A stretch of 63,509 nucleotides of DNA, the filler included, from Kipferlia bialata (lineage: Eukaryota): assembly GCA_003568945.1 (NCBI GenBank). It is 4 parts of 4 records of this genome, joined end to end, with 100 filler letters (N's around TTAATTAATTAA, not from the genome) between each part and the next. Parts side by side here need not be neighbours in the genome. Positions count along the whole stretch, not along the records: positions 18,644 to 30,908 come from BDIP01000473.1; 3 more parts are not named here. One strand, 5' to 3'. The notes under the pieces were generated by a model. The model was not told where the DNA came from and did no database searches. It saw only the letters and a program-made list of their open reading frames with translations. Shown piece after piece: positions 3,184-63,264 of the stretch (its first letter is position 1; each line of letters opens with the position of its first letter). The position numbers and the translations under genes are program-made.

Positions 3184-3219
<36 letters not shown>

Positions 3220-4140: not shown

Positions 4141-4712
4141 CTGGGGGTGAGGGAGGATATCAATAATGAATATATATACATATATATATTTAGGGAGAGA
4201 GAGAGAGAGAGAGAGAGAGACGGAATAATAATGTCACCACAACCATGTCGGCGTCATACATCTCAGCTGAGAGTGAAGGATAGTATATATATCAGAGAGA
4301 GAGGATGGGGAGGGGAAGAGTAAGGATATACTATCATACATCTCAGCTGGGGGTGAGGGATTTATCATATTATGGACAGAGAGGGAGAGAGGGAAGGGCA
4401 GAATGGAAGAAGGGAGGATACTATAACCATTAGTGTCTCGCCATCATACACCCCATCTTGTAATATAGAGAGACAGAGAGAAGGGTGTCATTATAGAGTG
4501 CAGGTATTATTTGGAATGAGAGAGAGAGTTGGGGAGGCGAACGGGGTAAGGGGGGGGGGGGGGGAAAGGGGGGGGGGGGGGGGGGACTCTTCCAAGAAAA
4601 GAAAGAATGGGAGGGTGAGGAATACTTCAGATAAACAGAGAGAGATAGAGAGACATTGAGAGGTAACTGCACGGGGAGACACTGCTATACATATATACAT
4701 ATATATATATAC

Positions 4713-5559
4713 CTGGGCTAGGGGGTGCATCTGGGGCACCAACACCTGGGGACATGCATGCCTCAGACACCTCTGGGGGGTGAGGGGAGGACGCGCACAG
4801 ATATACACATTCCCCACTATATAACATGGATACAATACCTCTGCTGATGGGCTCTATGGGCATCTCCCCGTTCTTGACCGCCTCCTCCTGCTCTCTCTTC
4901 TCTCTCTCTGCCTCTCTGTCCCTCTCAATCTCAGCAGCTATCACCTGGTCCACTACTCCTAGAGTTAGAGGTACTATCAGTACTATTGATATATCCAATG
5001 TGTACTATGACATATAATGTGTACATGTCCCGCTCAATCTCAGCAGCTATCACCTGGTCAACAACGCCTGCAGCGTCAGTACTCTCATTAATAGCACTCT
5101 ACATCCTAGACAAATGACTAATATATGGGAATATGAGTGTATACGTACCTGTCTCTGCCATCTCGAGGTATATACACTATGCTATTTATAGTGTGTATAC
5201 TATGAACGCTATCATTTATATATACTAATATACTGTACCCTACCTGTCTCTGCCATCTCGATGTATGCCGGGTGTCTGACCACATCCCTCATGTCACCCT
5301 CAACCACGTTGGAGGGCCTGAGGGTTAGTAGCATTAAGGTATATGTATATGTAGCTATACTAGTGTACACATATCCATAGATTAGTGTGATATAGAAACA
5401 TTTCCCTCATATCACCCTCTACCACATTGGAGGGCCTAGGATAAGGAATACATGTGACCACTCAAGACACAATATGTATAAATGTACTACTTGTATACCA
5501 TACCTAGACTGCCTGCCCTTCTTGAGCACTGGCTTCGGTGCATGGGCAGGGGGCAGGGG

Positions 5560-5597
<38 letters not shown>

Positions 5598-8500
5598 ATA
5601 TAAATATACACATATACCTTGACTGCCTGCCCTTCTTGAGCACTGGCTTGGGTGCATGGACAGGGGTATGTATATATATATATATATACTATACTAATGG
5701 TATACCTAGATTGTCTGCCCTTCTTGAGCACTGGCTTCGGTGCATGGGCAGGGGGCAGGGGGAGGTGGAGCCTCACCCAGTGCCTCTTGGACAGGAACAC
5801 GGTCTCACGCACAAGGGACCTGGAGGTAAGGACTGAACATACATATACATGTATGTATATACACATAGTCACGCACAAGGAACCGGGAAGTTAGATATAT
5901 GTTCAAATATGTATATATATATATATACCTTAACCTCTCTGGCTCTGCGTTGATCTCCTGCACTGTCTCTGTTCTGAGTGACACAGTGGGGGGTGCGGCA
6001 AGCATGTCAGGAGGGGGATCCAGGGACCTAGGGGTAAGGGAGAGAGGAAGGGGAAGAGAGTGAGGGGAGAGCATGTCGGGAGGTGGGTCCAGGGACCTGG
6101 GTTCTTCAAGCTATATGTACGACTATTCAATATACACACACCTTGCCCTCAGCAGCAGGCACCCGAGTGTCTCCATGGGCCAGTTGTGGTCACGGTCGGC
6201 CTGGGTCACCTGGGGGTGAGGGGGTGTAGATACATAGACACAATGAGTATACATAGTACTGTATACACATTCAGCACAATAGCACTCACCGCCCTATCAT
6301 TATTGCAGTCATCAGTATATATATGCGTATATAGTTGTGTACATACCGCCCTGTCATTGTTGTAGTCGAATGTCCAGTGTGTATAGAAATACGAATCTCT
6401 ATATTCATATATAATGTATATAGAATATATAATATATATAATGTATATATATTATACTACTAATACTCACCGCCCTGTCATTGTTGTAGTCGATGTCCAG
6501 AGGCACTGTGGGCAGAGTGACACCCAGCAGAAGGTGGGTGCACACATAGGACACAGCGTATCTGGCAGTAAGCATATATGTATATATACAATAGAGTATA
6601 TATATATATATGTGTATATATATAGATATATATTCATATACAAGAGTGACACCCAGCAGAAGGTGGGTGCACACATAGGAGACAGCATATCTAGGGTGAG
6701 CATATATGTATATATTTATATATATACATCTGGATTGACCACATACCTGACACTCCCACAGTTGTGCCTGGCTACACAAGTACATGTGGAAGAGAGTGAG
6801 GGTACGAATATATGATGGAATACCATACATGACACTCCCACAGTAGTCTGGTTTAAATACAAATATTTTATATACCATACCTGACACTCCCACAGTTGTG
6901 CCTGGCCACATATGCTGCATACATGGACAGGAATGTGATGGGGGGCATGTGGCCTAGGAGGGCTAGGCACTGAGGTTAGAGTGAGACATATAGAGAGAGG
7001 GTAGAGAGAGAGAGAGAGAGGTGGGGGCCAAAGATGCTTATGTACTAAAGTGGTAGGTACAATGATACGCCTGATATATATATATTGGAATATTGACAAA
7101 TACACTGCATACCTGGTATATGGGGTGCACTGAGAGTGCCCCCTTGATATATATGAATATTTATAAATATTTATATTAATTATAATATAATATACAATTA
7201 CTACAATAGTTTACAAATAAATATATATAATTAGTATGCATAATACCTGGTATATGGGGTGCACTGAGAGTGCCCCCTTGAGGGCCAGGTCAAGGGCATG
7301 CTTCCTATCCTCTCCTTCTCCGTCTCCCTCTGTCTCAGTCTCCACACCAGGTGGTTCCATCAGGGAGGCATTGCTGCCAAACAGCACAGACAGAAGAGAG
7401 TCGTCACCTAGAGTAAGGTCCTGGGACTCCTCGCCCTCAGAGGCACTGGGGTGAGTGTATATAGATAGTAATATATATATACACACCACTCAATCGTTGA
7501 CACATGTTGTGTATATGTAGATATACCTCTCCTCACCCTCAGAGGCACTGGGGTGAGTATAAATTGCAACACACTACTCAAATGTCCACATATATATAAT
7601 AATACAAATACTAACGTGTGTGTGTGTAATAGTACAATACCTCTCCTCGTCCTCTGGCTGTATGAGCTGGGCACTGGGCACATGTATATATATACACAAC
7701 AATATACAGTATGTATATATAGTAGTACCTCTCCTCATCCTCTGGCTGTATGAGCTGGGATGGGCTGAGTATGAGGGTGGGCAGAGGGAAGGGCCGGGTG
7801 GTCAGGTGCCGGAGGCCACGGACCTGGGGTGAGGGTACTGATACAAATATATCACTTATGTATAAATACATATATATACTCACCTCTGACACCAGGTGTA
7901 AGGTGCTGTTATGCAGTCTGACAACAAATTTTCAAATGTATATAAGACTTATATATACATATATGCATATACCTCTGACACCAGGTGTATGGTGCTGTTC
8001 TGCAGTCTGAGGAATGCAGCCAGCAGTGCATCATGGCCCCTCTTGGACTGACACATCATGGACTGGTCGCCCTATGATAAGTCTATCTATATTAATATGT
8101 AAATATATATATGTATGTATATATATATAGAGAGAGAGACACTCTTGGACTGGCACATCATGGACTGATCACCCTAATAATTGGGATATATACGTATACA
8201 TATAAGACATCATGGACTGGTCGCCCTGAGGGTTAAGTATAAGAGTGATATGTATATGGGGGGGGGGGTAATACTGATTACGTAACTCAGAGATATGAGT
8301 AACTACCTGTGTCTTTGGCGCCTTCTGAGTCTTCTGCCCCTTCTTGGCCTTGCCACCCTTCTTGGGGGTGTTCTCGGTCTTGGCTGGGGTTAAGGATACA
8401 TATAGTACAAATACACATATAGTATATATCCATATGCACCCACCCTTGGCTGCCTTGGGGTCGTTGAGTTCCATGATGCTCTTGTCCACCAGACGCTGCA

Positions 8501-10159
8501 TGTACCTAAGGGGTGAGAGGGGCATATTCTATACAATCGTCAATGCATAGATGGATACATAGTACAAGGGTGAGTGTATGCATACTATGTACATTCGCTA
8601 CATTCGCTACATTCGCTACATTCGCTACATTGAAGAATACAATAATATCCTCACAAACCTCTCGGCGCTGTCCCTCTCCTTGACAATCATGCGCACAGAG
8701 GCAATGCCCTGGGGGTCAGAACACTAAGAAATCAAACACATTACTATTAAGATACTAGGGTATACACACACACACATATATATATATATATCCTAGTAGG
8801 GTATGGGCACTGAGGAAATGCCCTGGGGGTCAGACCACTTAGAGCACCACTATATATATACACAACTATCGCTCTACCAAACCACCCTCTATATCAATCA
8901 ACAAATGTATGAACTCACCGAGGCCAGCTTCCTGAGTCTCTTGAGGTATGGTAGAGCAGCATATATTCATCTGGATGTATATGTATATATGTATGCATAT
9001 ATATATATATCTACTCACCGAGGCCAGCTTCCTGAGTCTGTTGAGGTAGAGCAGTGCTGTCTGGGGCTTGGACAGCATGGAGAGAACACACTCCCGCTCG
9101 ACATCGGGGAATCTAGGGTAAGAGGTAGAGTACATATATAGAGGGAGGGGGGCATGTAGAATAGAATAGAAAGAATGGAGAGGACACACTCCCTATGGAC
9201 ATCGGGGAACCTGATGGATAAGAGAGAGAGATTCATCAGTATAAAGGCACGACACACTCCCAAGTATATATAACATACCCTAGGATATCCCAGAGTCTCT
9301 TTATGGATGCCACTGTCCTGGCCAGTGGATACATTGTATATATGTATATAGTACATGTATATATATAGTATATACATACCCCAGTATGTCCCACAGTCTC
9401 TTGATGGATGCCACTGTTCTGGCCAAGGTATATATATTGTATATATATATATATATATAGAAGAGTATACATAGTATATACTATATACAGTGATATATAT
9501 AAACACACCCTAATATGTCCCACAGTCTCTTGATGGATGCCACTGTCCTGGCGAGAGGTGAGACAGCACGCATCTGGAGGGTGCCACCCTGTCTGGAGCT
9601 AGAGGTTAGAGAGGTATATATATAAACAGAGACAGAGAACAACGGGTAATACATATGCAGGGTGAGAGTAACATGTATAGGGAGGGTACCACCCTGTCAG
9701 GAGCTGGGTCAGCATATTAATATATATATACTTGAGAGAGAGAGGGAGAGAGAATATGTCAAGAGATGGTCACCATACCTGGCCCTGGTTGCTCTGCCAC
9801 TGACAGGTCTGTTGGCAGTGATATAATACCATATATATGAAAACTCTACATTATACTTTACATATACTATAATGTAATATACCTGGCCCTGGTTGCCCTC
9901 CCGCTGACAGGTCTGTTGGCAGTACGAGAACTGGCACGGGAGGTGGATCTGAATGGTGAATATATAGAGAGCACACACATATATATGTATATACATAGAT
10001 ATAGATCACCTGAATGGAGTTGTGACGTGGTCCCTGACCGATGACCCCACCAGCTGTGTGTCCTGTCTCTCTCTCTCCCCCTGCCGCTTCTGCTTGCCAG
10101 AGGCGTTGAGGGCACTGCGGGGGACGTGATAGTCTCTGAGGTGAGAAATAGATGAAAAC

Positions 10160-10193
<34 letters not shown>

Positions 10194-10248
10194 CAGAGGC
10201 ATTGAGGGCACTGCGGGGGACATGATAGTCCCTGATATTAGTTGCAGT

Positions 10249-10289
<41 letters not shown>

Positions 10290-10724
10290 ACAGAGGCATT
10301 GAGGGCACTCCTAGGCACGTGGTAGTCCCTGAGGGTAGTTGCAGATATATACAAATATATATATGAATACATATGTATACAGAGGGTGTGTAGGTGTATA
10401 TATATATACCCACCGTGTGTGCTTCATGCTGCCGCGAGGTCTGCCCCCTATATATACACATATATGATACACAATTAATGTATATATACCCTTACTAATC
10501 CCTGTACCTTGTGTGCTTCATGCTGCTGAGGGGTCTGGCCCCTGTCCCGGCCTGGGACCTGGCACCGGACCTGGTCCTGGACGAGGCACGGTCCCTGGGG
10601 TTAGTGTCAATGTATAGTATATACGTATGGAATAATACAGAAAGCGAACATCTGAAATATATAGAGACAGAGAGTTCTATGACCGAGGAGGCACGGTCCC
10701 TAAAGGTAAGTGTCAATGTATATT

Positions 10725-10769
<45 letters not shown>

Positions 10770-11864
10770 TACACTGCCCTGGTCCTGGAGGAGGCACGGT
10801 CCCTGGGGGTTAGACATGTATGTATACATGTTACCGATTATATATATATATATATATATATACCTAAACACTAGATCAGTAGCACAGGCCTAGTATGTAT
10901 ATATCGTGTACACTACCTCATAGTGAGTGATGCCGCCATGCTTGGCTTGACATTCCCTCTCTTGACAGGGGTATCAGTCACACCTCGGATGGGGACAGGG
11001 ACATCGCCAATGCGCCTGGCATTGGGGATATAATAGAACAGAGATAGAGTGTGTGAGTGAGAGAGGGAGTCATTGAGAGAGAAAGAAGGGTACCAATGTC
11101 ATCTTATCAACATGGATGCAAAACACAGGTCATAGGAGGGATACAGATACTGAGGAATGATATATAAAGACAGGGATGTGTCACTGACTTAGGAAGACTA
11201 GTATATGGGATATGTAGGGGTACGGTAAGGGGAAGAGACCCCCATGTAACAATGATACATGTGCTTGTTAAGTACAAATACATATCATCACATATTCACA
11301 AAGGCACTAAAGAATTGCACACAATAGGAAGTAGCTATGAATGTAGTCAGTGTGGAGTGTCATTGCACAGTACCCATACCTATCAAACACCAACAGAGAT
11401 GCCGGAATGTCCACTGGCCCAGGCACAGCCTCCAGCTGGTCATGCACCTCTCTCTCCATCTCCCTCTCCCTCTCCCTCTCGGGTCCCACCAGCCCCAGGG
11501 GGTTGGGGTCGTGTGCCCTGCGTGCTGACCGGGTCCCTGGCCTCCCACTCCGGCCCCTCTCCCTCCTCTCTATGGCACCCACTCTCCCTCTGTCTCTCCT
11601 GGTGCCTCCCCTGGTCACGGGTCTGCCCCCACGTCCAGTGGAGGTACCAGTCGCACCAGAGCGTGTCCTAGGGCGCCCTCCCCGGCCCCTGCTTGCCTTC
11701 CTGCTGCTCCTGCTCCCCTTCCTGGCAAAGAAGTCGGCCAGGGCAGGGTCACGCTTGGGGTTGTACTGCACAAGCCGGTCAGTCACCTTGACAGAGTTGT
11801 CAAAGCCAGCCTCACGGGCCGCTATGGTGTCTATGTACGCCTCATAACTGCGGGCACGCGACAT
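4713..11864 (-). CDS. Hypothetical protein, about 19 exons, Arg/Gly/Ser-rich N-terminus followed by a helical region; 3' end not found
   Basis: ATG at 11864 (MSRARSYEAYID...), first exon 11380-11864. A phase-consistent exon chain follows, e.g. LARTVASIKRLWDILG|FPDVERECVLSML, SLVRETVFLSKRHWVRL, GVVDQVIAAEIERD, EVSEACMSPG (4713-4772). The LWDILGFPDVER segment loosely recalls CCDC87/MAP65-type helices (weak). Confidence 0.75.
8590..8630. repeat. 9-bp tandem repeat ACATTCGCT x4 (intronic)
   Basis: Directly visible in the sequence. Confidence 0.85.
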
Positions 11865-12200: not shown

Positions 12201-12820
12201 GCATCCCTCACTGCACTGGAGTCCAAGCACGCCAGTCTCAATGAGAGGTATCACGCATGTGTATAATGTCATCAATGAGTGCACTCATATATGTATTCAT
12301 TTGTATGTGTATTCACTCTAGTATTAGTATTTGTTTACCACATGCACCAAGATGGTTATGTGTATAGAAGGACATATAGTGTTACCCTTCTCTGTGTGGA
12401 CTCCGGTGTCCTGTGTGAGACTTCATACTCTGCCACTCTTATATTTTATTGTACTGACCATAGATACTCTGGTGTCCTGTCTGAGCTGACTGGCAAGTAC
12501 ATGCTCTCATATACTTCTCTATAGACTCTATCTACGTTATATATATGTGTATATTCTCTACCTCTATCTTACCTCAGATACTCCGGTGTCCTGTCCGAGC
12601 TGACTGGCATGAGGGCAGAGTGGGACCAGAGGGAGAAGGAGGCACAGAGGTATGTACATATATATGTATATGTATATATAGTGATGTAGTATGTATAGTA
12701 TTTATATATATATTTGTGTGGCATGATGGAGAAGGAGGCACAGAGGTATGTATCTATATGTATATATATATATAGAGAGAGAGAGAGAGGGAGAGAGAGA
12801 GAGATATGTAGTATGTATAG

Positions 12821-12862
<42 letters not shown>

Positions 12863-14002
12863 GTGCATAGTGGGACCAGAGGGAGAGGGCACGGACTAAC
12901 ATAAATATACTGACCCCCAGCAATGCCCGTGCCCTCCAACAGCTCAAGAGGGAGAACGAGGATTTGAAGAAGAGGTATATATCAACATTACCTACACTAT
13001 TAGTGCTAGATATTAAGTATATGTTATATTCGTACAGCATATCACATATTTGTCCTATGCATATTGTCTCACCGCAGGGTGGCTGATAGCAAGGAGTACA
13101 CTCGCAAGCTACAGGCAAAGGTCCAGGGTGAGTGTTTGTGTGTATATTTTGTGCCAACAGAGTGGCATGACTCCCTCTCTTTCTCTCTATCCATATAGAT
13201 AGATTGATACCCTAACCCCCTAGTCCGTGCCCAGCCGAAAGGCATGGCAGACATCTCTCTCCCTCTATTCCTCTCTCTCTCTATATATATATACATGTAT
13301 ATATAAATCACTAACCCCCTAGTCCGTGCCCAACACAGTGGCGTGGCAGACCTCTCTCTCTCTATTTGAATGTAGTGTTACGTATACATATGTATACTAT
13401 GTATATGTTATATATATATATCACTAACCCCCTAGTCCGTGCCCAGCAGAGTGGCATGGCTGACCTCCTTGGCAAGATGCAGCAGCTGCAGAACGATAAC
13501 CAGGTGGGGACAAGATAACACATCACAATGCTTGATATTTAGTGCTGGTCTGTCATATATTTCTTTTGCATATTACTATAACTACTATTTCTACTTTATA
13601 TATTACACGATATACTGTGATATATACTCACCTCCATATACCCATCCTTAGGCCAAGGACGACATCCTGGAGTCACTCACTCGCATACTTCTCATTTAAT
13701 TATAATATGATATATATAGTATTTTTCTACTATTATTCCTGACCCCTTGGCCAAGGACGACATCACTTGATATGTACGATATATTATTCATTCTTGTAAT
13801 ACCCGATTATTCCCGAGTTGTATATTCTAATGTCCAGGCCAAGGACGACATCATCCTGGACCTTTAGATACTGTTGTTATCACCCATATTTACTTCTTAT
13901 TGTATGAATCACTTACCCCTAGGCCAAGGACGACATCATCCTCGAGGTGTAAGTATTATATGCTTGGCACTCAATTTCTATCATTATGTATATATATTAT
14001 AT

Positions 14003-14036
<34 letters not shown>

Positions 14037-14239
14037 TTATACTAATGTCCAGGCCAAGGACGACATCATTCTGGAGCAGGAGGACGAGGTGACAGACCTC
14101 AAGGCAGAGCTCACGGCACTGGCCAACGCACTTAGCAACACTGGTTAGTACATTTGTATATATATGGTTTCTATGTATATATATACACCTCAAGGCAGAG
14201 CTCACGGCACTGGCCAACGCTCTATCAAACACAGGTCAG

Positions 14240-14272
<33 letters not shown>

Positions 14273-15407
14273 GCATGTAGTTTCTATGTATATATATATG
14301 CCTCGAGGCAGAGCTCACGGCACTGGCCAACGCTCTTAGTAACACAGGTTAGCACACATTTCTCTCTCGCTCGCTCTCCGTCTCTCTTTCTCTATTGATT
14401 CGTCTTCTCACTCTTTTCAGAGGCCAATATGGGTCTCTCTGCCCCTCGGTCCCCCATGTCACCTTTCTCTCTATCTCTTTCTCTCTCTCTCCCAATATAT
14501 ATAGATAGATAGATGTCCAATGCCATACCTAACTCCGCAGAAGCTAACATGGGTCTCTCTGCCCCTAGATCCCCCATGTCCCCTGGGGCAGCCAGGCAGT
14601 ATCTGGAGCAGAGTCTCCTTCACAAGTGAGTGTAATGAATGTATATATATATATTAGTATTTATATGTGTATATGTATATATATGAGTACATATCTATGT
14701 ATGTCCACTGGGGCAGCCAGACAGTGTCTGGAGCAGAGTCTGCTGCACAAGTGAGTGTATTATATATATGCACACATTCATATGTATGTATGTGTGCATG
14801 TGTATATGTATGCATTCGTATACATTCTTGATACTCATCCCAGGCTCTCTGTTGCCAACCACTCTCTGGAGAGCATGCGTCTGCAGCTCACAGAGTCAGA
14901 CAGACAGGTATATGCTCTTATATTCTCTCACATTATTATATGATATATACAAGTATACATATATATGTGTATATATGTCATATACATTCAGCTCGCAGAG
15001 TCAGACAGACAGGTGTGTGGATATAGATAGGTAGATAGATGTATTGATACTGACACTAATAGTAAATGAATACGAAGCTATCTCACCCCAGCTGGAGCAG
15101 TCCAAGAGCCGCTACCAGGCCATCAGGGCAGAGTTCCAGGTACATGGAGTGTCTCATTATTTATACATGTATATTATATATATATATATATGTACACTGT
15201 ACATATATATATGTATATATATATATATATATGTGTGTATATATCTTCCAGGCAATCAGGGCAGAGTTCCAGGTATATATTTCAGTGTATATACAATTGT
15301 GTATAATGTGTATACAGTGATATATACACATTCCTACCCATCAGGACAATGCGGCTGACAGGGCCAAGGCCCAGTCCGAGAGGGACACAGCCATGTTCGA
15401 TCTCAGG

Positions 15408-15438
<31 letters not shown>

Positions 15439-17989
15439 CCTTTAGTTTCTTATAGTGGATAGCGGACTATATATGTATGCTGACACCAGCAATGCTCTGG
15501 AGGCTCTGGAGACCCTGGAGGCCGAGAGGGAGAGAGAGACTGCTGCCTGGGAGGAGGAGAGACAGGCTGAGAGGGAGGAGAGAGAGAGAGAGTTAGAGGA
15601 GGCCAGGCAGGAGAGAGAGGCAGAGGTAACGACCGCCATCTATATTGTGGAGTTCTATATAATCATTAACATGTAGATTGAGCAGCACTCCGAGCAGCGT
15701 CTGACTGATGCCGAGTCCCTGATCGCACAGGAGGAGGAGCTGGTGGCACTTAGAGCCAAGCTGGAGGTATATCAATGTATATTTTNNNNNNNNNNNNNNN
15801 NNNNNNNNNNNNNNNNNNNNNNNNNNNNNNNNNNNNNNNNNNNNNNNNNNNNGAGGGCTAAGCTAGAGGTGTAATATATATGATCAATATATAAGTATAT
15901 ATAGTGTATATATATATTCGTGTGATATATTTCTAAACATGAGGAGGAGCTGGTGGCACTTAGAGCCAAGCTAGAGGTATATATATACATACTCACATAT
16001 ACGTTCCGCTATATTATATACTCAGTCTTTTGTCCTAATAAGTGTTTAAGAATTGTACACAGCAACCTATTACCTTGTCCACCGAGGCTGCCCTGCCCTG
16101 TGCCCAGGAGGAGTGTGCATTCATATATATATATATATGAATATAGAGAGAGTTATATACATACATACATATACAGTTAACTCCTAGGATACCGAGGCTG
16201 CCCTCTCCTCTGCCCAGGAGGAGTGTGCCTCCCACAGACACACGGAGGAGACACAGACACAGCACCTGAAGGCAGCTAACGAGGTAGAGTATATATACAG
16301 TGTGACTGTATAAACATATATATACAGTGTGACTATATATAGAGAGAGTGGCATATGTATAGACACACGTAGGAAACACAGACACAGCGCCTGAAGGCTG
16401 CTAATGAGGTAGAGTATATATACTATAGCTACTTCTAGAGAGAGAGGGAGAGAACACCGCGGAGACACAGACACAGCACCTTAAGGCTGCTAATGAGGTG
16501 TACACTGTGTATAGACTATATGGATACTGTAAGTTAATATATGTCTATACTATGTCACTGACATACCTAGGCCCTCGAGGAGCGCCTTGTCCAGATGGAC
16601 GCTGAGCTGGAGGCCACGATGGGAGTACTCAAGGAGAATGAGGAGCAGGTATTGTATTATATAGTTGATGTTTATTAATAGAGAGAGAGAGAGAGAGAGT
16701 ATGAGGAGCAGGTATTGTATATGAATATATATGTAGGGTATTCTTCCTACCTTACCCCAGGGCCAGCGTGACCGTACTCAGTACGACAGTGACCTCAGGG
16801 CCTGTGAGGATGCCAGGGAGAGGGCTGTCGAGAAGGTTGCACACCTCGAGAATGAACTCGAGAAGACCAAGCAGAGGTATACATCTGATACTAATGTATA
16901 TTTTTATATTGTTAATCATTTATATTCTTTATACACTGATTTTTCTATTGATGTATCTATGATTGTTATTGCTCCTGGAGACAGAGCTAGAGAAGACAAA
17001 GCAGAGGTATATATATGTGTGTAAGTATATGGATATATGCCTCTTCTTACCCCAGACTGGGCCTCATGAGGCAGACACTGCTGCAGAGACTGAGGTCCAC
17101 AAAGCCTGCTACTGCTCCTAGGAGAGAGGCCACTCAGGTATAGTACAGTGAAAGATAGAATACAAAGGCTTTAGTATGTAAATTGTGGTGTATATATATT
17201 GTACTGAGTCTACTGCTGCTCCTAGGAGGGAGGCCACATTGGTTGGTATTCCCATTTGTTTAGGAAGTGTGTGACTCTCAGACGAGACTCCTGTATGCAT
17301 GAGTGTACATAATACTCCATCCAATTCTCACCCCTAGGCCCCTGCCCGCCAGTCTGCACCAGTGCAGTCACAGCCGAGGTAAATAGTAATATATATATTA
17401 TAGAAAGAGATATATATAGATAATACATTATGTTAGTGTATGTGCCAGTGCAGTCACAGCCAAGGTGGGTACCTCTATACGTATCTATATTTATTAATAC
17501 ATTTAGTAATATTGATACATATGCAGACTACGAAGTAGCATCTGTGCCTGTCCAGTTCCAGCCAAGGTGGGGTTATATGTAAATGTAAATATTCAGATAT
17601 ATTTGTGTTCCAGCGCACTGTACATACTGCTATGGTACACTATAGGTGTTCATATTAGTATTCTTACCCTAGGCCCAAGTCCCCTGTGACCACTGAGAGG
17701 GTGGTGCATGCCATAGACGCAGAGGGGGGAGACAGGTAGGGGTATTGGTCCCACCTCATATTCATTCTCTCTCTCTCTGCCTCTCTACATATACATATAT
17801 CGCTAACATCTAGGGAGGGTGTCCCCTATGAAATCATGGACTTTGACTTCTCTCTCTCTCTCTATATATATATACATACATGTCTTTAATCTTACCTCCA
17901 GAGAGGGTGTCCCGTATGAGATCATGGACTTTGACTTTGATGGAGACGACACAAACACAATGTCTCTCATGGACCTCGCCAGGGGATAA
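12201..17989 (+). CDS. Long coiled-coil protein (about 19 exons; start exon unresolved)
   Basis: Phase-consistent exons: ASLTALESKHASLNE, NARALQQLKRENEDLKK, AKDDIILEQEDEVTDLKAELTALANALSNT, NALEALETLEAERERE, ALEERLVQMDAELEAT. The last exon EGVPYEIMDFDFDGDDTNTMSLMDLARG ends at TAA 17987-17989. Confidence 0.82.
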
Positions 17990-18687: not shown

Positions 18688-20860
18688 CCTGCGTCCACTG
18701 CGTTGTGCCACTCACTGGCCAGGGGGCCCTTAAGTAGGTCACCGATGTTCCTGGGTGTTAGATATCCACCATTTCGGTGCAATACAATGGTGATAGTGTA
18801 TATCATTACTATCAATAGTGTACATGTAATGCAGGTGGGCCACTGAGGAGTGTACACCCAGCCCAGCATATACAGTCATACTTTAAATACTGTGACTGTG
18901 TAGGTATGTGTATATACCTTGCCCTCTTAAGCAACTCCACCACAGCCGAGTCTGCCCCATCTGCTGTGCATACATATAGTATACACACAATATATATACA
19001 CTCATAGTGTATACTATATATACGTACCTGGCTCTCTTTAGCAATTCCACCACAGCCGAGTCTGCCCCGTCTGCTGTGCATCTACCCAGTCGGTCGGGCT
19101 CATCCTCAGTGGAGCCTAGGTATCAGGATACAACGCATATATACAAGTAGTCGTTTTGAATGAGTGTATTGATACAATCCAAAGAACATGAGTATGAGTG
19201 GCACTGTTTCGCTGACTTCAATACAAGTAGATAGATAGTCAAGAGTACATTATTATAATCATATACCTAGTAACGATGTGAGTATGAGTGGCTCTGCCTT
19301 GCTTGCTGCCAGTTCACTCAGCCACTGCTCAATGCCCTCAGAGACACCTGGGGGAGTCAGTCACTAATCTAATGAAAACAGTCACTAATATAATGATTAC
19401 ATTCGCTCAGAGACACCTGAGGGTCAGTCACTAATCTAATGGATATATATATAAATATATAGCGCCGCTAGCTAATTGATACTGACACCAATCTACTGGA
19501 TTCTGACTTGGACCCATTGGGAACTAGACCAATTATAATGAGTGCGTTACGGATACCATCGTGTATTGTTACCTAGCCACACGTCAATGTCCAGTTCACT
19601 GGCATAGGTGGCCCCAGCAGGGCCATTCTGACAGGTAAGATAGTCTAGTACAGGAAACTCCATCAGCTAGCAAGAAGTGACATACCATAGGTGTGTATAC
19701 CTCTGTACTACGGATAGCGCATATAAACATGTATATATATGAATGTCTCTGGGCGCGCATACCTCTGTGTGTGATACCGCAGCCACTGTGGTTGCCTCAC
19801 TGCCCCTGACATTAAGGGTGTAGAGAGGGAATACAAAGGGTGTAGAGAGGAATATTGAGGCTATGCACAGAGAGGATGGACAAAGGTACATATACTAGTG
19901 TTGGAATGACCATAACAAGAGTTTAGATACCTATATATACATATACATATACCTAGATACATCTGAAAGTGTTGGTGGGAACTCCACTGTCTTCTGGTGG
20001 GCAGGGGCGGCCTGAGGTTAGTATATATACATAGAGAGAGAGAGAGAGAGATGGAGATGTAACTATATATATATATATAGAGAGAAAGGATACTGTCTTC
20101 TGGTGGGCAGGGGCGGCCTGGGGTCAGTGTATATGAATCTCCGTGTAGAGGAAGATAGAGAGGGAGAGAGAGGGATGCTCCAGTCTTCTGGTGGGCAGGC
20201 TTCATACAGGAAGACAGAGCGTATGTATCTAAGTAGTACCGTTGGAGACACGTGTGTACATAAATTCATGGATATATATATAATACATATGGAGAGAGAT
20301 AGACAGAAATATAGATGGTACCTTTGCAGTTGGTGACACTTGGGTGGACACGGGGACTGGGGTGAGTATAGAACTAGAATCAATCTCTGTATTTGTAGTA
20401 AGTACGTTGGAATAATCATGATCCATCGGCATAATGTACAATTAATGGGTATAGTACCTGGCGTGATGCGTCTCTTGGCCCCTGGGGTGGCACTAGTGCT
20501 CAGCTGGCTCTGGGGGTCAGGTACATACAACCCTATACGTTGTGACTGTACATATAGTATACATGTAAATATCAATACCTTAAGATCCAACAGAGAAGCT
20601 CTGAGAGCACTAATATCATACATTAATATCCACAAATATTTGCAAAGTATCATATAAAATACCTGCACATGCAGTGGCCAGAAGGGGACAGGTCACATAC
20701 ATACACACGCATATATATATATATATATATATATATACGTATATATGTATATATATATAAGTATACTAATACCTGCACGTGTAGGAGTGATGCCCTGACC
20801 GTGGCCAGAAGGGGACAGGTCACATGGAGCAGAGTGGCCTCGCTACATGGTTAGCTAGAT

Positions 20861-20898
<38 letters not shown>

Positions 20899-23800
20899 CA
20901 GGGTTATATAGAGGCAGGAGTAGAAAGAGATATCCACCCAGGTAATTCACCACACAATATCATTATATCTATATATACAAAGAGATATAGATAGGGATGG
21001 AGAGAAGGACACACTACCTAAACACCACGTTCTCACAGACCCTGGGCAGTGACACCCTGTTGACTAAAGGGTCTAGGTAGGCACGGTTGGTGTTTCTCTC
21101 ATAGGCACTGAGGACGGAGCCTATTGGTCAGAGTAACTAATATATCAATACACGTACATATGTGAGACAGTCCCCGAGGCATAACAAGTCACCTTGCAAA
21201 GTACCCTTTCTTAATACATATCCTCATCGCAACAATATTGTGGTCTTAAACAAGTGATTGAATAAACACTCAAAATATATATTCATATCAAAAACAGATT
21301 CATATACTAAGCAACGTGAACCTGTGACATCTCTCTCTGAACTCATATTACTTTTGTACACGTATTCCACTATACATAATGTATACGTATATTTAAACAA
21401 TTCTTGTACCTGTGACATCTCTCTTTGCACTGCTCCGTAAATTATTGATACCTAATGCTATACTTGCAGTAAGTATATATATACACTTAAAGTAAGTAAA
21501 TATATACACTGATATTGTACCTGTGACATCTCTCTTGGCACTGCTCTGGCCTAGAAGGGAGGTGCCCAGGCCTGGTGTGAATACAATATACACATGAAAA
21601 CTATATGCATATATATATAGAGAGAGAGAGAGAGGGAGAGAGAGGGAGACAGAGACAGACAGAGAGAGAGAGAGGTTGCAAAAGCAGGGAGGTGCCCAGG
21701 TCTGGCATTAGAGAGACACCAGTATTCATTAGTAGTAAATATACATATGTCTGCTGTGTAATGTTATATCTGTTAAACGAAGTACCTAGCCTAAGACTGT
21801 CAATCTCTGACAGTAGCACTGCATACTGGACCAGACAGGCACGGGAGGCACCCTGAAGTCATTGGATGGAGGTCATAAGATAAAGGATATGGAAATACTT
21901 ACAGTTATGAGTACTACAACTCTTGAATATGTAACATATAGAGTGACACACAACATAAATACACATATATACTACTACACATATACCTCCTTTGGGTCTC
22001 TCATGTACTCTGACAGGGCACCCAATATATAAACGTGCTATATATATATATATATACATATATATATAAATACTGAATACAGATCATATATTTCACTGAT
22101 ACCTCCTTTGGGTCTCTCATGTACTCTGACAGGGCACATATACATATACTAGTATACATATACATACATATATATTTACACATATACACAAATAAATATA
22201 TATATATATATATATATACGTATACTACTACACACCTCCTTTGGGTCTCTCATGTACTCTGACAGGGCACTCCTAGTGGACACCAGGATGGCCTAGAGTC
22301 ATGCATCAACAATAATTAAGTATCGTATACATAGAAGTGTTCTAACATGCATTGCACTTTAGATATACATATGACAGTGCACTCCTAGTGGAAACCAGGA
22401 TGGCCTAGAGTCAGACACCAAATACTAATTAAGTATAGTATATACATAGCAGTGTTCTAACATGCATTGCACAATATATATACATATGACAGTGCACTCC
22501 TAGTGGACACCAGGATGGCCTAGGAGTGAGATGCATAATATACTATGGTACTGTAAACATATATGGACTAATAAATATATACATAAGACAGGGCACTCCT
22601 AGAGGACACCAGGCCTGAGGGTAAGGATGTATACATATAGCTATACATCCTATGTATACATGAATACGTGATAAGGAGAATATGGCTTCCGGTGGTATTG
22701 GTTAGAGGGACACGATAACCTGTAGACACATTCATATACAAAATACTTCTAGTTGCACCTGCAGTGTTGGGGAAAAGGCCCTCACTCCAAGGGCCCTGTA
22801 CAGCTTGGTCAGGCTGGAGGTGAGAATACATTGATAGTATCAATATACTATAATAATATATTAATAGTAATAAGAGTATATATTAACATATATTAATAAG
22901 GGCCCTGTACAGCTTGGTCAGGCTGAGAGTGAGATACTAAAAGATATATCGTTTGGGTAGCGATATTGCTACTACCACATAATGTGTATTCAGCCCGAAA
23001 CAGTTTTGTCAGGCTGTTACAGTACCTCAGTAGGGCTATGGTGCTTGGGAACCTCATCAGCAGGGCATAGAGGGAGACAGGCAGGGCATCCTGGTCCTGA
23101 CTGAAGGCCTGATACAATGAGACTAATCTACTGGTACCAGAGAGGGAGTATATATACGAGTGTACATGTATACATGTGTATGTGTATACATGTATATATG
23201 TATATACTAATACACATACCTGCAGTGTGCAAGGAAGGGCTCTGAACTGGTCAGACCTAGCTGGGGGTCAGATGTAAACATGTACAAACATTTATGTAAA
23301 AGAGAAGAGTCAAGACTAATCCAACGATCCTGTACATGGTGCAACCATGGGTACACACATACGTATATTTCAATACATAAATACTCACTCTGTCTTGTGA
23401 CTAGTCCAATGATCCTGCACAGGATGCACCCGTGGATGAGGATGTACTGGCCAGTGCTGAGTGTAAGTGGTGTAAACACATATACCCAAAAATAAATGTG
23501 TATATATGTGTATATACAGAGATAGAGAGAGAGAGAGAGAGATGCACACGTGGATGAGGATGTACTGGCCAGTGCTGAGGTCAGCGGTATATAGATAGTA
23601 TAGGGGGGCAGATGGAGAGAGAGAGAGGATCAAAGGATGAGGATGTACTGGCCCAAGTGTTGAGGGATATATATATATATATATATATATATTCATATAT
23701 TCACATATATACCCACCCACCCACATACACACAAACACACATACATATAGATAGAGGGAGAGAAAACCAGGGATCAGAATCAACTGTGTGTTATACGTTC

Positions 23801-26071
23801 CGAAATTGCTTCTCCATCGTGCACCACCCCCATACACACTCAATTGAACATTTCCATAATAGTTGGTATGTAGTATGGTATGTAGTATGGTATGTAGTAT
23901 GGTTGAATGTAGAATGTGTGTCCATACCTAGAGTGCTCTGCCTCTGCCTGTTCCAGTGCCTGAGGTGAGATATGTGAACAAGACAATCCGATTACATATG
24001 AAATATCTGTCTATATATATACATACCAGTCCTCGGCTCCAGTGCCTGACGGTGGAAGACTACACTCATATGTACATAGTATATGAATGGTATATACCCT
24101 CAGTGAGATAATATGTATATACTATACCTGCACTAAACACGTGCACAACTGCACTGTGAGGTCTGATGCAAACCCCTGGTGCAGAGAGGGGGCCAGGCTG
24201 GATATGACACTGAAGAGCCTAGAAGTAAGTTGCAAACATTAGCTAGAGATGCTAAGAAGTAATATATCAATAGAATATGTACACTATTATACATTTGTGT
24301 CTAAATGTGTAATCATGTGGTAGAGAGGGTGCAAGGCTGGATAGGACACTAAAAAAACTGAGGAGTCAGTAAAATACTACTTAGAAGATTCACATAATAT
24401 ATGTACCTATCTGCCGCTGCATCCGTGGCACAGTGCCCATACTCATGTCTAGTGGGACCCATCAGACGCTCCTCCATCAACCTGATGTTAAGGGTGTAGA
24501 GGGAGAGAGAGAGAGAGAGAGAGATGAAGCTCCTCCACCAATATAGCAATAAGGGTGTAGAGGGGGAGAGAGAGAGAGGACTCCTCCATCAACCTGGCAA
24601 GAAGGGTGTAGAGGGAGAGAACCGTGGCGGTGCATCTCTGGATCCAAACAGTATCTATGTAACTGTATACACTCACCTCTTTCTCGACATGGCACTCTGG
24701 TCGATATACTCATTTCTATCTATAATACTAAATACTACTGAATACTACTAAATACTACTAAATACCACTGTATACACTCACCTCTTCCTCGACATGGCAC
24801 TCTGACCGCCCTCGCTGTCTGGTGGTCAATAAGAGTCAACAGGAGATATACATACTTGACAATGACAGGGCTGCCCTGTGCGTCTCTGCCACCAGTCTCT
24901 CTCTCTCTCCCTCTCTCTCTCTCTATATATATATATATACATACCTAGAAGTGATATGGCCGCCCTGTGTGTCTCTGCCACCAGTCTCTCTCTCTCTCTC
25001 TCTCTCTCTATGTGTATATATATATATAAATATACTTATATACCTAACAGTGATATGGCTGCCCTGTGTGTCTCTGCCACCAGTGTCTGTATCACGGCAT
25101 TGGACCACTGGAGAGTGTCCTAGATATTATGGGAGTGGAGAGAGAGAGAGAGAGAGAGAGGAGTAATGTTGTCAGTATATAGAGGGAAGAGAGAGAGAGA
25201 GGTAATGTTAGACCACTGGAGAGTATCCTAGAATATAGAGGGAAGAGGGAGAGAGCGGAAGTAAGATATACCTCATTAGTGGTAGAAGCACTATTGTATG
25301 AGTATAAAGATCCTAACCTGCATCTTGAGTCTCAGCAGGATGAGGGACCTCTTCTCAGGGTCCTGGGGGGTGAGTGACAATAATACATTCATGTATATAT
25401 GAATAATAATAATAATGTGTATATATATATATACACGTCTAAACCCTTCTCTGGTCCTGGTGAGTGAAATCTCCCATTGAACTACAAATGTGTATACCAT
25501 ATAGGTAGCAAAGAGACACAGTTATACCTCCATTCTGCATGCCCCAGCCACCAGTCTGACCTCACTGTCAAGGGCACGGGTCATCCTAGGGTAAGGGTAT
25601 ATATATATATACACCATATAGCACACGTCTACTATCACTCTATATATCTCTTTGACCCGACTGTCAAGGGTCATCATCGGGTGTTACGACCAAACACATA
25701 TACGATAATACTACTAATGAATTTGTATATTATAGATTTGTATATACATATGAATATAGACCTCACTGTCAATGGCACGCGTCACCAAGCGAGATAAGGC
25801 AAAGGGGAATACAAATATACATATATAGTGGAGTACATAGAATACACATTTATACAACGTCAAGGGAACGGGTCATGCCAGGGGGTTAGCACTCATCTGA
25901 ATTCAATTCACAAATATTCATTAGCCAGATATATATATACATATATATATTTATTCATATATCGCAAGTGAACTCTCTGTACCTAGGTAGGGTCGGCACT
26001 TGGTAGAACCTCCTCATATACATTACAAACCACGAAACAACAATAGTGAATATATAAGTTGTAGTTATACC

Positions 26072-26109
<38 letters not shown>

Positions 26110-28967
26110 ACTGTACCTAGGCAGGGTCGGCACTTGGTAGAAGCCCCTGTTGGACTTCCTCTCAGTGCCTGGGTCAGCATGACATCGATATACCAATACT
26201 ATATAGACATTTACACTACTATTACATACACATATACTATATATATGTAGATAGTACCTGTGCCCTGGAACGGGTGTATGATGGTGGGCAGGAGAGCACC
26301 GACAGGGGTGGCCTGGATTGTAAGAAGAGAAAGAGAGACAGAGAGAGAGAGAGTCCGGACAGGGGTGGAGTGGATTTTGAGAAGAGAGATAGACAAGGAG
26401 AGAGGGATGGACACAGATAGAGAGCGCCATCTGGGTGGGCAGAGAGAGAGAGAGAGAGTGCGGACACGACTGGTCTAACGGCAGGAGACACACACACTAT
26501 CTCTAAGTATAGCTAGGCCAGTGACTACTCTCTCCCCCCCTCTCTCTCCATATATATATACGTATTCATATATAGTTATATGTATACCTGCTCCTTACAC
26601 ACCCCAAGTGCTGTCTGGGCCAGTGACTGTGCAGTCTCAGAGGGGCAGATGACTAGATCAGTGTCTGTTATTAGTATTGTATATATTTAATATATACATA
26701 GAGAGAGAAAGAGATAGCAATATATGTATATATATATAGAGAGAGAGAGAGAGAAAGAGAGAAAGAGAGACTGTGCAGTCTCAGATAGAAATATGACAAG
26801 GTCGATACATACTGTAAGTAGTTGTATATTAATATAGAGAGAGAAAGAGTGTGGGAGAGTGAGTCCCACACTCTTCCAATGGACTAAAGAGTGGTTATAT
26901 AGAAACACTATATATACATATGGTGAAGTACCTGGAATGGGGCCACAGTAACTGGCGGCACACTCTCTTATAGCTGCACAATATTCAGTTATTGATAGAT
27001 ATAGATACACATACAAGTATATGGTATATATACATATGGTGAAGACCCTGGAATGGGGCCACTGAAACTGGCGGCACACCCTGCCAGTGCACACAGAGAA
27101 TAGATATAGATATATATGTACTAGTATATGGTATATATATATAGTATATAGTACCTGGAATAGGTCCTGAATAGCTAGCCGCACACCCTGCCAGTGCACA
27201 CAGGAAATATAGTAAGAGATACTTATAAAATATATATGTATATATATATATATAGTATATAGTACCTGGGATAGGACCACTGTAACTGGCGGCACACCCT
27301 GCCAGTGCACACAGACAGTGGAGAGGGAAGGGACAGAGGAACCTGAGTGAATTGGTGTAGGGGGAGAGGGGGGGAGAGAGGGTACACAGAATGTGCAGGG
27401 GGAAAGGACAGAGGAACCTAGGTATTAAGGGTGTAGAGGGAGAGAGAGAGAGAGGGGGGGGGGTACACAGACAGTGGAGGGGGAAGGGACAGAGGAACCT
27501 AGGTATTAGGGGTGTAGAGAGAGAGAGAGAGCACTGACGGTGTATAAGGAACGGCATCAGACTTAGAAAATGGATAGAGGATAGAGGTTGACAAAGAGAA
27601 CCCAAGTTGTAGTTGTGGGTGGTGTAGATATGAGTGAGTTACATACCAGCTGATGATGTGACCAAAGAGTACACCCACTGCCTCATGGGGTATGGGGGTG
27701 GGGGTGCTGGGTATGTCACTCTTGGGACCATTGTTACTGGGATGAGATTACTTAAATACATATATATATATGTACACTTATATATATATACACAAATGTA
27801 TATATGGGGGTGCTGGGTATGTCACCACCGCTGCCCTTGGGACCAGACATGCTGGGATGAGAATATACGTATACACATCCAACCTATTCAGCTATATTTA
27901 CATACCCAATTGGCATCATGCACCCAAAAATAGATGAATATTACAATTATACAATAAATACACACAGCGTCACAATATATGTATTGTTTGTCTTAACATA
28001 TATGAATTCATCCATACCCAAATGGCATCATGGACACACACACACACAAATATATATACATAATACCCCATAGATATAAATCTATATACATATATATCTA
28101 CATCCATACCCAATGGCATCATGGACACACATATATACCCATAATACCCCATATACATATATATATATATATATAAATGTAAATATACAAGTAGATATCC
28201 AAGTGTATATCCATACCCAAATGGCATCATGTATGAATACATATTCATATCTTCCCCATAGATATATATGTATACATACTAATTACACAACCCATACCCA
28301 AATGGCATCATGGACACATCCCCCAGTCCACCCACAAAGGACAGAGGGTCATCAGATGCAGTGGCCTGACATAAGGACCATTTATATGTATATACACATA
28401 TACTATATTATTATACAAAGGACAGGGGGTCATCGACAGGGGCAACAGTAGTCTGAGGTGAAAAGCACTATATATATCAATGTATACTGTATGATTATAT
28501 ATTCAAGCCCACAAAGGACAGAGGGTCATCAGAAGCAGTGGCCTGGTATTAGAACTGTAAATAGAAACTCTTAATATCTATATATTCATTTACATTGGTA
28601 TATACTGAATAGAGATAAAGAATAGTCCATCAGAAAGGACCGGGGGTCATCAGAATGCGGTGGGGGCCTGACATAAGCACGATACATCTACACTAAATAT
28701 GCGTGCAAATCACAACTTACGTTGAAGGGTGTAGTTTGGAAGTGGCTACACAAAGTATGATTATACATACGATTATATACTAAACATATACACTATAAGA
28801 GCAACATACTAATTCGTGAATATGTGTATAGTATTGAGTATACTGCATAATAACACACTATACTTACGTTGAAGGGTGCAGCTGGGAAGTGGCTGCTTGT
28901 GGTACTTGGTGTGATGTAGTCTCTGAGGAAGAGTTCCCTAAGGGCCTAGGGTGAGAGAGAGGGAGAC

Positions 28968-29001
<34 letters not shown>

Positions 29002-30367
29002 AGACTTAGTGATGTAGTCTCTGAGAAACAGTTCTCTACGGCCCTAGGGTGGGTATGCACAAATGTATAGAAAGAGAGAAGGAGAGAGAGAGTGTGTGTG
29101 TGTACCTTTGCAAGTGTGGATGAGTCAAAGTCAGTGGTTTCCGGGGTGGAGCCATCCTGCCTGGGGGTAAGCAGAGATGGGCGCAACATGCAAAGAAATT
29201 GTAAGGCGTATAGTATAGAGTATGTGGAACGATGTATTTACCAAAATACTGTTGCAATCAGTACAGTGCCTACACATACACATACACATATATATGTACA
29301 TTATTGTGGTTATATATCCCTGCACAGTATCCCCCTGGCTGCATATGTCACTTGGCATAGTATATATGTGTATATAGGCATATATGTATATACATACGAA
29401 CATATACACATATATACATTTATGTATATATATATATATATATATACATATATACCTGGACAGTATCGCCATGGCTGCATATGTCACTTGGCATAAAAAT
29501 ATATGAGTGTATATGTGTATATGTGTATACTTTTACATACATGTACTATATGTGTATACAATACATGTATTACCTGCACAGTATCCCCATGGCGGCATAT
29601 GTGACTTGGGCTGTGAAGTGCAGACGGTTCACCTGCCATTATTGGATGTAGAGGGGGGGACGGAGAGAGCGGGAAGGTTAGACACAGAGTACAGTAGCTC
29701 AACGTGACATTATCGGGTATTCAAATATACATATTCCACACTGTATGCCACCCCTCTCTCTCTCTCTCTCGCTGAATATACTAATATAGACACACATGTA
29801 ACACACACCATAGTTAGCCCCGCTGTCTCACAACTCTTTCCTTCTCTGCATACGTATACATATATCTGCTAATGTGTATATATTGACACACCTTATTGTA
29901 AGCCCCACATGCCTCACTACCGCGACCAAGGCCCTGAAAGTGAGGGTACTAACAATCCGACCACACCGTATTCACAACACATAATTACACTTATTCACAA
30001 AAATATACATGGTATATATATATATATATACATATATATGTCACTTGATCACTGACCGATATACACGACTCAATGGTCAAGAATGAAAAGAATCAATATC
30101 CGATACATGTATGTGGGTCGAACCGAATGCTCTTTCTCTCTCTCTCTCAATTAGCGAGATAGAGTAGTATATATTCATGCTAAATATACCATACCTGTGT
30201 ATGTGGATCGAACCCGAATGAGAAACTGGCAGGACGCTGGGGATAAGAGAGGGTAGAAAAAGGGAGAGAAAAACTGGCAGGACGCTGGAGATAAGAGTGT
30301 ATAGAGGGAGGGAGAGAGAGAGAGAGAGAAAAAAAAAACTGGCAGGACGCTGGAGATAAGAGAGGGT

Positions 30368-30422
<55 letters not shown>

Positions 30423-30598
30423 AAGACAAGAGCGGGACTCAGTAATTGACTGGTCTACGGAGTATGGAGAGAGAAGAATGAGAGTTCGTATATAGTTCAG
30501 AATATATATATTGGTGTGTAGCATATACCTTATTGAGCGTCTCTGATGCTGGGCTGTGTATGACATCGGAGGAGCCACTGAGATAGTCAATGGTGGAC
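18688..30598 (-). CDS. Large hypothetical, probably alpha-helical (HEAT/ARM-like) protein; about 33 short exons, truncated at both contig ends
   Basis: Continuous phase-consistent chain from STIDYLSGSSDVIH (30528-30598) through VNRLHFTAQVTYAAMGILC, FLCPFPLHCLCALAGCAASYSGPIP, LFSVISSLAPSLHQG, AFSQDQDALPVSLYALLMRFP and GASRACLVQYAVLLSEID to NIGDLLKGPLASEWHNAVDA (18688-18750). No family recognised. Confidence 0.78.
22268..22522. repeat. Tandem duplication of a roughly 115-bp unit made of an exon 5' end, its acceptor and intron sequence
   Basis: CACTCCTAGTGGACACCAGGATGGCCTAG...ACATATGACAGTG is repeated, with intron sequence also shared between copies. Confidence 0.85.
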
Positions 30599-55859: not shown

Positions 55860-56076
55860 TTACTGCTCCTGGTTCTGCAGCTCTGCCTCCTGTACCACAG
55901 GCACCATCATGGGGGCCTAACATAAGCTTATACATACATACTAATATACCCATATATATATGTATATACTCATATGTATTTCAATCTCGTACAGTAGTGG
56001 AGGGTACCATCATAGGGGCCATGGGCATGGGGACTAGGACAGTCTGGGGCACAAGGACAACGGGTGAGGCAATCTG

Positions 56077-56115
<39 letters not shown>

Positions 56116-56270
56116 CAACGGGGGAGGCAATCTAAGCATTAGTATTTATACATATATATATAGAGTGGCACAAGGACAACGGGGGAGGCAATCTAAGCGT
56201 TAGTATTTATACATATATATGAATAGAGAGAGAGAATGGGGCACAAGGACAACGGGGGAGGCAATCTGGT

Positions 56271-56304
<34 letters not shown>

Positions 56305-60948: not shown

Positions 60949-60984
<36 letters not shown>

Positions 60985-61761: not shown

Positions 61762-61801
<40 letters not shown>

Positions 61802-62033
61802 CAGATAGAGAGAGAGAGAGAGGCATACATGAGGTGGGTGAGGAGAAGACCAGGGGATGACGGAGAGGGAAAAGAGAGAGAGACACCACTATTGTTATAT
61901 ATAGTAAGAAATCTGCGGAAAAGAGAGGATTGCTAACACAATTGTTATGTGTATTGTGTTCATGATACTGATACTGATACTGACAAGTGTTATTGTGGCA
62001 CTGTAGTATCGTGTTGTGTGATATCTGTTCAAG

Positions 62034-62074
<41 letters not shown>

Positions 62075-62211: not shown

Positions 62212-62254
<43 letters not shown>

Positions 62255-63228: not shown

Positions 63229-63264
<36 letters not shown>

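Follow-up and report, generated by a model that had tools for sequence, protein, structure and literature searches.

The closest known system is the mirages of amphioxus, which have been described in Adh3 and in the globin genes BflGb6 and BflGb9 (PMC3087553; the descriptions here and below follow the accessible parts of the articles cited). Mirages are tandem copies of an exon-intron boundary, from either the 5' or the 3' side, and many of them carry the AG or the GT. Normal splicing is undisturbed. The units are 81-100% identical (about 150 bp long in the globin genes), they show concerted evolution, they were found at few loci, and they were proposed as a route to intron gain. A coding signature is not mentioned in the accessible text of PMC3087553.

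Three other systems are similar in part. In intron 7 of human F7, a 37-bp minisatellite repeats the donor site; the downstream donors are silent and the most upstream donor is chosen (PMC1557585). This is a single locus with short, near-identical units, on the donor side only. If introns are gained by tandem genomic duplication, then exon sequence that was duplicated locally becomes intronic, and the new intron runs from the donor of one copy to the acceptor of the other (PMC3443670). Finally, in vertebrates, imperfect break repair by strand annealing yields short linked duplications, which can include exons and splice sites, from a template that lies nearby on the same chromosome (PMC2671141).

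The DNA that we analyzed (the window) is 63,509 nt long and consists of four blocks with linkers of N's between them. It is from Kipferlia bialata, a free-living fornicate flagellate. Many exons in the window have copies of one of their ends in the adjacent intron, and we call these copies echoes. In the literature that we searched (mostly open-access texts, with supplements excluded), we found no report of echoes in Kipferlia and no report of silent-site bias in mirages. The accessible text of the Kipferlia genome paper does not contain "duplicat" or "tandem", and in the accessible text of PMC6679479, Kipferlia bialata appears solely in connection with spliceosomal proteins and snRNA searches. 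We counted echoes in four genes, all of which have open frames (109 exons together):

18689..30597, minus strand: the host gene KIPB_002709, with 36 exons, an open frame of 749 amino acids, and 49 echoes
721..11847, minus strand: echo-rich gene A, modelled here, with 34 exons analysed (11015-721) and 34 echoes
12201..17989, plus strand: echo-rich gene B, modelled here, with 19 exons and 25 echoes
56008..63451, minus strand: echo-rich gene D, modelled here, with 20 exons and 25 echoes

All echo counts are for these four genes of the window, and they omit the first exon of gene A and two echo-bearing stretches within 45000-55300. For genes A, B, and D, the output of a small self-trained predictor was curated by hand. 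Gene D needs a GC donor after 61695 (minus strand) to keep its frame continuous, and an exon of gene A (1430-1520, minus strand) contains a coding tandem repeat with a 9-nt unit (DST repeats). The two omitted stretches hold further echo-bearing genes, at 45070-48330 (plus strand) and 49000-55300 (minus strand); in one of the two, a junction is present in as many as four copies near 46000-46550.

The host gene was identified by a protein search: a query spanning the exon at 27647-27736 matched KIPB_002709 from Kipferlia bialata (partial; P0003). Residues 75-833 of P0003 map exactly onto 37 minus-strand exons between 30597 and 18690. The exon that this public model places at 27498-27469 was dropped from our counts because a spliced contig skips it. 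Residues 1-74 of P0003 are a ketopantoate-reductase-like domain (PF02558) with no match in the window, and the block that contains the host gene terminates in a poly-G run (30860-30900). P0003 may be a chimera over a mis-join.

With a score of at least 26, and with low-complexity matches dropped, there are 133 echoes beside 66 of the 109 exons. This is far above chance: 41% of 210 pairs of an exon and an adjacent intron reach this score, versus 0.44% of 11,235 non-adjacent pairs. Echoes are 13-56 nt long. Copies of 5' ends lie upstream of the exon (68 echoes) and copies of 3' ends lie downstream (57 echoes), with 8 inner echoes and none reversed. The exon end that faces the echo is included in 125 of the 133. 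No echo is a complete exon, as each lacks 14 nt or more of its exon. The acceptor is in register in 57 of 71 upstream echoes and the donor in 52 of 62 downstream echoes; the far-end donor is present in 4/71 and the far-end acceptor in 0/62.

An echo consists of one exon end, in most cases with the AG or GT attached, along with AT-rich filler that is about as long as one ordinary intron. Typically, 55-100 nt of filler separate an exon from the nearest echo (the introns of the third block are 55-143 nt), and the offsets between exon and echo are mostly 85-135 nt and multiples of this. As many as four different echoes can lie on the same side of an exon. Each echo lengthens the intron by about 93 nt. 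The exon part is 92% identical, and the intron flank loses its similarity (relative to background) within about 15 nt of the splice site; the flank exceeds the 95th percentile of the null in just 14 of 109 echoes. Some pairs of sibling echoes have filler in common (16/60, with a fourfold/non-degenerate ratio, as defined below, that is still 2.9) or have the far breakpoint in common (23/60), so some units were amplified locally.

Echoes are found in 70 of 105 introns of the four genes, versus 0 of 20 introns in two GC-rich genes with long exons in the third block. This block (31009-44916) is GC-rich throughout, with long exons and short introns. Its genes include a WD40 gene, a Kelch ORF, and an SF1 helicase, and the ORF at 37930-38964 is a 100% match to KIPB_002715 from Kipferlia bialata. 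In this genome, gene architecture looks two-tiered. In a comparison of the window to itself, 123 of the 144 matches are direct duplications within 1 kb, and 31000-45000 has no direct duplications, bar one distant low-complexity match. Random duplication of 110 nt everywhere does not account for echoes, as we found only three weak matches in 6,446 nt of presumed-intergenic sequence, versus about one per 165 nt in the echo-rich genes.

The first-pass annotation of this DNA had pointed to echoes with frame-preserving indels in 27647..28545. The features in and around this interval are, in the order of transcription:

28868..28945, minus strand: preceding working exon, ALRELFLRDYITPSTTSSHFPAAPFN, in the spliced contig and in P0003
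28624..28667, minus strand: upstream echo, with +3 at the acceptor, then +1 (TGA TGA) and -1; just outside the interval
28508..28542, minus strand: upstream echo, collinear with exon 28365 (34/35 nt, a single silent change)
28415..28452, minus strand: upstream echo, TTVAPVDDPLSF, whose acceptor is 6 nt further from the shared core than the exon's; skipped by the contig
28298..28365, minus strand: working exon, 68 nt, ATASDDPLSFVGGLGDVSMMPF, in P0003 and at contig record positions 345-411
28217..28231, minus strand: downstream echo by sequence comparison, 15 nt identical, with GT
28110..28129, minus strand: downstream echo with a frameshift (a 1-nt deletion ahead of the GT); a counter-example within the interval
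28018..28038, minus strand: downstream echo of the 3' end of exon 28365 by sequence comparison, 21 nt identical, with GT
27906..27926, minus strand: downstream echo of the 3' end of exon 28365 by sequence comparison, with GT
27806..27851, minus strand: upstream echo of exon 27736 by alignment, with its own acceptor, +9 nt in frame; depth 0, skipped by the contig
27647..27736, minus strand: working exon, 90 nt, NNGPKSDIPSTPTPIPHEAVGVLFGHIIS, in P0003 and at contig record positions 412-503, with no extra letters
27266..27342, minus strand: following working exon, joined at 27340-27645; its upstream echoes (27498-27465 and 27417-27384) are skipped

Exon 28365-28298 alone has three upstream echoes (28415, 28508, and 28624) and four downstream echoes.

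In this region, splicing skips the echoes. A contig from run X1 (2,624 nt, depth 32), which we presume to be RNA, covers 28947-28867, 28364-28298, 27736-27645, and 27340-27266. The positions in its record are continuous across these four exons, without other letters. Two of the joints are listed with GT-AG ends (28364-28867 and 27340-27645). The middle joint (28298 to 27736) is unlisted, yet the record positions pass from 411 to 412. No splice site other than the outer donor and the acceptor of the exon itself is used at the joints. This one contig skips all of the echoes in the three introns of 27260-28960, and its depth is zero over both 27806-27851 and 28415-28452, although contigs drop rare forms and minor use of an echo would escape. 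The echo at 27469-27498 (minus strand), which the public model annotates as an exon (FLCPFPLHCL is repeated), is also skipped.

The skipped sites are often strong. One intron of 502 nt passes over three echo acceptors, two of which outscore the acceptor in use. Across the four genes, and with matrices made here, the used site is equalled or outscored by 24 of the 57 skipped acceptors and by 32 of the 52 skipped donors. The tolerance of echoes implies that splice sites are paired across the exon (with RNA for three introns).

We considered whether echoes might be exons themselves. The echo at 28452 was rejected as a hidden in-frame exon: it lacks a usable donor (its score is -1.9, versus -0.1 for the lowest true donor), and the contig skips it. 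For the echo at 27851, the only fair donor (3.7) leads to the wrong phase. More broadly, 0 of 133 echoes span both exon ends, so they are not tandem or mutually exclusive duplicated exons. Two short echoes elsewhere, at 7529-7547 (minus strand) and 13923-13946 (plus strand), have an AG and a strong GT (scores of 6.7 and 6.2) and are 21 and 24 nt. From their sequences, these are candidates for in-frame micro-exons; if real, they would be echoes becoming new exons.

Echoes work like mirages in three ways: they are tandem copies of one boundary, they keep the AG or GT, and splicing is undisturbed (in Kipferlia, in the three introns of one contig). Unlike mirages, they lack similarity over the whole unit, as the filler is mostly unalignable. 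They also occur at 66/109 exons instead of a few loci, and the exon part has a strong coding signature. As in F7, the repeated donors are silent, but in Kipferlia skipped acceptors are just as common, and many of these equal or outscore the acceptor in use. Echoes do contain locally duplicated exon sequence that became intronic, but they are not new introns by tandem duplication: the far-end sites are nearly always missing, the contig's joints skip the echo sites, and echoes lengthen existing introns with no added splice event in the contig examined.

To describe the coding signature, we compared each echo to its exon. The 308 substitutions in the 133 echoes fall at codon positions 1, 2, and 3 in counts of 56, 50, and 202, and pN/pS is 0.19. 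The third-position bias is present in each of the four genes. The rate is raised for all four bases, so base composition is not the cause. Across six alignment settings, the third-position share is 57-68%. Fourfold-degenerate sites differ at 126/722 (0.175) and non-degenerate sites at 100/2637 (0.038), for a ratio of 4.6 (95% confidence interval 3.4-6.1; 0 of 5000 bootstraps were 2 or below). In the two wrong frames, this ratio is 0.45 and 0.51.

If a copy were identical to the exon at birth and neutral since, then the ratio could not exceed 2. Simulated neutral copies, with the same aligner, had a ratio of 1.8 and 42-45% of changes at third positions. Because the observed ratio is 4.6, about four-fifths of the fourfold divergence accrued while both sequences were under coding constraint. 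Simulated coding divergence followed by a short decay gave ratios of 3.9-5.4 and third-position shares of 61-67% (with two parameters chosen to fit).

The coding past is not limited to the exon, as the ratio between echoes is 2.7 (with fourfold divergence of 0.175) and 53 of 102 echo-private changes are at third positions. These changes are from sites under at least two echoes, where there are 16 exon-only changes (14 silent) and 102 echo-private changes, although the latter count is somewhat inflated by serial birth from a changing exon. With so few exon-only changes, the exon is not simply fast-mutating. Among non-silent changes, there are 4 stops in 116, versus 4.2% expected, which looks like neutral decay. 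Divergence is nearly uniform among echoes, with a dispersion of 1.14; in simulations, exponentially spread allele ages gave about 1.5 and a fixed divergence gave 1.08-1.09. Since the silent excess is above what the working exon could have contributed (4.6 versus 2), a translated past for the echo sequences is well supported by the substitutions.

The first-pass annotation had instead argued for a translated past from indels, on the grounds that triplet lengths in low-complexity linkers are independent evidence of translation. Its two alignments hold up. Echo 27851-27806 is preceded by AG and reads (G)MSGPKGSGGDIPSTP, versus (G)NNGPKSDIPSTP for exon 27736-27647. In the MAFFT alignment, this echo is three codons longer, with a single 9-nt gap between identical blocks of 10 nt and 21 nt; the first codons after the acceptor differ. 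Echo 28452-28415 reads TTVAPVDDPLSF, versus ATASDDPLSF for exon 28365-28298. Its last 20 nt match at 19/20 positions, and its first 18 nt cannot be aligned to the exon's first 12, so the offset of two codons (+6 nt) is from the position of the acceptor only (its score is 7.7).

These two triplet gaps are real, yet they are weak evidence alone. They are a selection, and frameshifted echoes sit in and beside the interval. With fixed rules across the four genes, 6 of 15 indels that are anchored on both sides are triplets (8/29 overall), and a hand-curated list of anchored indels likewise gave 6/15. The calling of gaps is noisy: substitutions alone lead the aligner to place about 5 spurious gaps per 133 echoes, and the number of gaps called varies from 4 to 77 with the settings. 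The majority of indels between echo and exon break the frame. For 6/15, p is 0.38 versus an expectation of 1/3, 0.06 versus 0.2, and 0.017 versus 0.15; the triplet excess is mild (p = 0.007-0.06) versus a neutral share of 10-20%, a range that we assumed from power-law lengths. Without the two cases from the first-pass annotation, 4/13 are triplets (p = 0.07-0.25 versus 0.125-0.2). In the curated list, three of those four are slips of a repeated codon (GCT, ACA, and ATC), which would be expected from neutral DNA that was formerly coding as well. Also, a triplet gap does not prove that the echo was translated, because the gap may have originated in the working exon, and there any other length would be lost. 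The translated past is supported by the substitutions (202 of 308 at third positions), and as independent evidence the two triplet gaps add little.

How could a formerly translated sequence end up in an intron? Because the copy would have been silently diverged already, the simplest source would be another translated version of the exon. Given the sequence evidence, we lean slightly towards the explanation that echoes are exon ends of other translated alleles, which were stranded in introns by imprecise repair or conversion. A chromosome break would be repaired off the homologous chromosome, where the match persists only in exons. Copying would overshoot into the other allele's intron, and the ends would be joined without trimming. 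One-sided invasion followed by end joining is known from plants and flies. Alternatively, an older tandem copy might be overwritten later by conversion from another allele's exon. The exon end of one allele would be stranded in the intron and would go through a brief neutral decay. Copies of a single junction would be tolerated because the spliceosome would pair the two closest sites across the exon. The +9 and +6 offsets would likely be variants in linker length among translated alleles, and the gaps of 1-2 nt would be decay after stranding. Unlike the vertebrate duplications by strand annealing (PMC2671141), this would require a diverged homologue as the template.

K. bialata is reported to be diploid (PMC5874029), and a source in other alleles requires silent divergence of around 14-16% between alleles. 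The assembly size agrees with the k-mer estimate (PMC5874029, in its accessible text), which suggests that heterozygosity is modest in that strain; this counts against an allelic source. The local amplification of some sibling units, with the bias retained, counts against it as well, as does the lack of a clear excess of triplet indels. For divergence this close to uniform, a hybrid or a small number of distinct lineages is a better fit than a panmictic pool. We identified no other strain or relative in two metagenome scans (which are uninformative about other strains), and P0003 and P0001 are each the sole member of their protein cluster.

The source could instead be a diverged copy that is not an ordinary allele. 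Imprecise conversion would have taken exon ends from a paralogue since lost, or from the other genome of an old hybrid. The near-uniform divergence (1.14, versus 1.08-1.09 with a fixed divergence) and the unalignable filler would be consistent with this. However, with up to four different echoes per exon side, and with 0.175 between echoes, more than two source lineages would be needed. Protein searches found no second copy, although this is weak evidence. We consider this source unlikely.

We think it quite unlikely that echoes arose by ordinary tandem duplication, of the kind known from the amphioxus mirages (PMC3087553), so that each echo was identical to the exon at birth and has been neutral since, with the silent bias and triplet gaps coming from the working exon alone. 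The geometry and polarity of the copies (5' ends upstream in 68, 3' ends downstream in 57, inner in 8, and reversed in none) are what duplication of a single junction would give. The offsets near 85-135 nt and multiples, and the filler that some siblings have in common, also fit. But the ratio would be at most 2 (1.8 in simulation), not 4.6, which largely refutes this explanation, and a fast-mutating exon does not rescue it, given 16 exon-only and 102 echo-private changes. Also, the filler would be expected to match as well as the exon part does, and it falls short of this.

A stronger form of the first-pass annotation's claim is that whole exons were duplicated and both copies were long translated in place, in tandem or as alternatives, until one was cut down to an echo. 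This would account directly for the silent bias and for the in-frame changes in linkers. Exons with echoes lean towards lengths that are multiples of three (26/36 such exons have echoes, versus 40/73 others, p = 0.10), and the two short echoes at 7547-7529 and 13923-13946 have an AG, a strong GT, and such a length. However, the coding phase would have to last about four times as long as the neutral phase. Intact pairs should then be more numerous than echoes, yet not one of the 133 is intact. The lack of any complete duplicate exon makes translation of echoes in place unlikely. Furthermore, 40 of the 66 exons with echoes are of other lengths, with the same bias (127/197 at third positions), and upstream echoes rarely have a far-end donor (4/71) and downstream echoes never have a far-end acceptor (0/62). 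Overall, this seems very unlikely.

An artefact of assembly would fit the length of the longest echo (56 nt), which is near 55, a value among the default k of SPAdes. The published genome is a SPAdes assembly of short reads from a diploid (PMC5874029), but it is extremely unlikely that the assembler stitched heterozygous alleles in tandem, given the reads that any de Bruijn contig requires over each junction, the absence of N's at the junctions we inspected, the presence of four different echoes on the same side of an exon (versus two alleles), the frameshifts and stops that would not be expected of live alleles, and the lack of echoes in the 20 introns of the GC-rich block.

Returning to stranded ends of other alleles, a broader proposal is tentative, and we give it a bit less than an even chance: Kipferlia may routinely swap exon ends between highly diverged alleles via repair, with the displaced end left in the intron. 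In intron-dense genes, much of the length of introns would then be a layered fossil record of past alleles that can be read in a single genome, and this unicellular metamonad would splice by exon definition, past stronger and nearer sites.

Copies that span a junction have so far been curiosities of a few animal loci, but in these four genes they accompany 61% of exons. Differences in intron length are in large part accounted for by echoes (r = 0.80), and the silent bias of echoes contradicts a plain model of duplication and decay. They mislead gene prediction, as the public model counts the echo at 27469-27498 as an exon, and they are a natural test of splice-site choice. The setting is an intron-rich fornicate that has been invoked in arguments for ancestral intron richness. 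If echoes are stranded alleles, then a single assembly would archive the diversity of a population along with a mechanism of intron growth.
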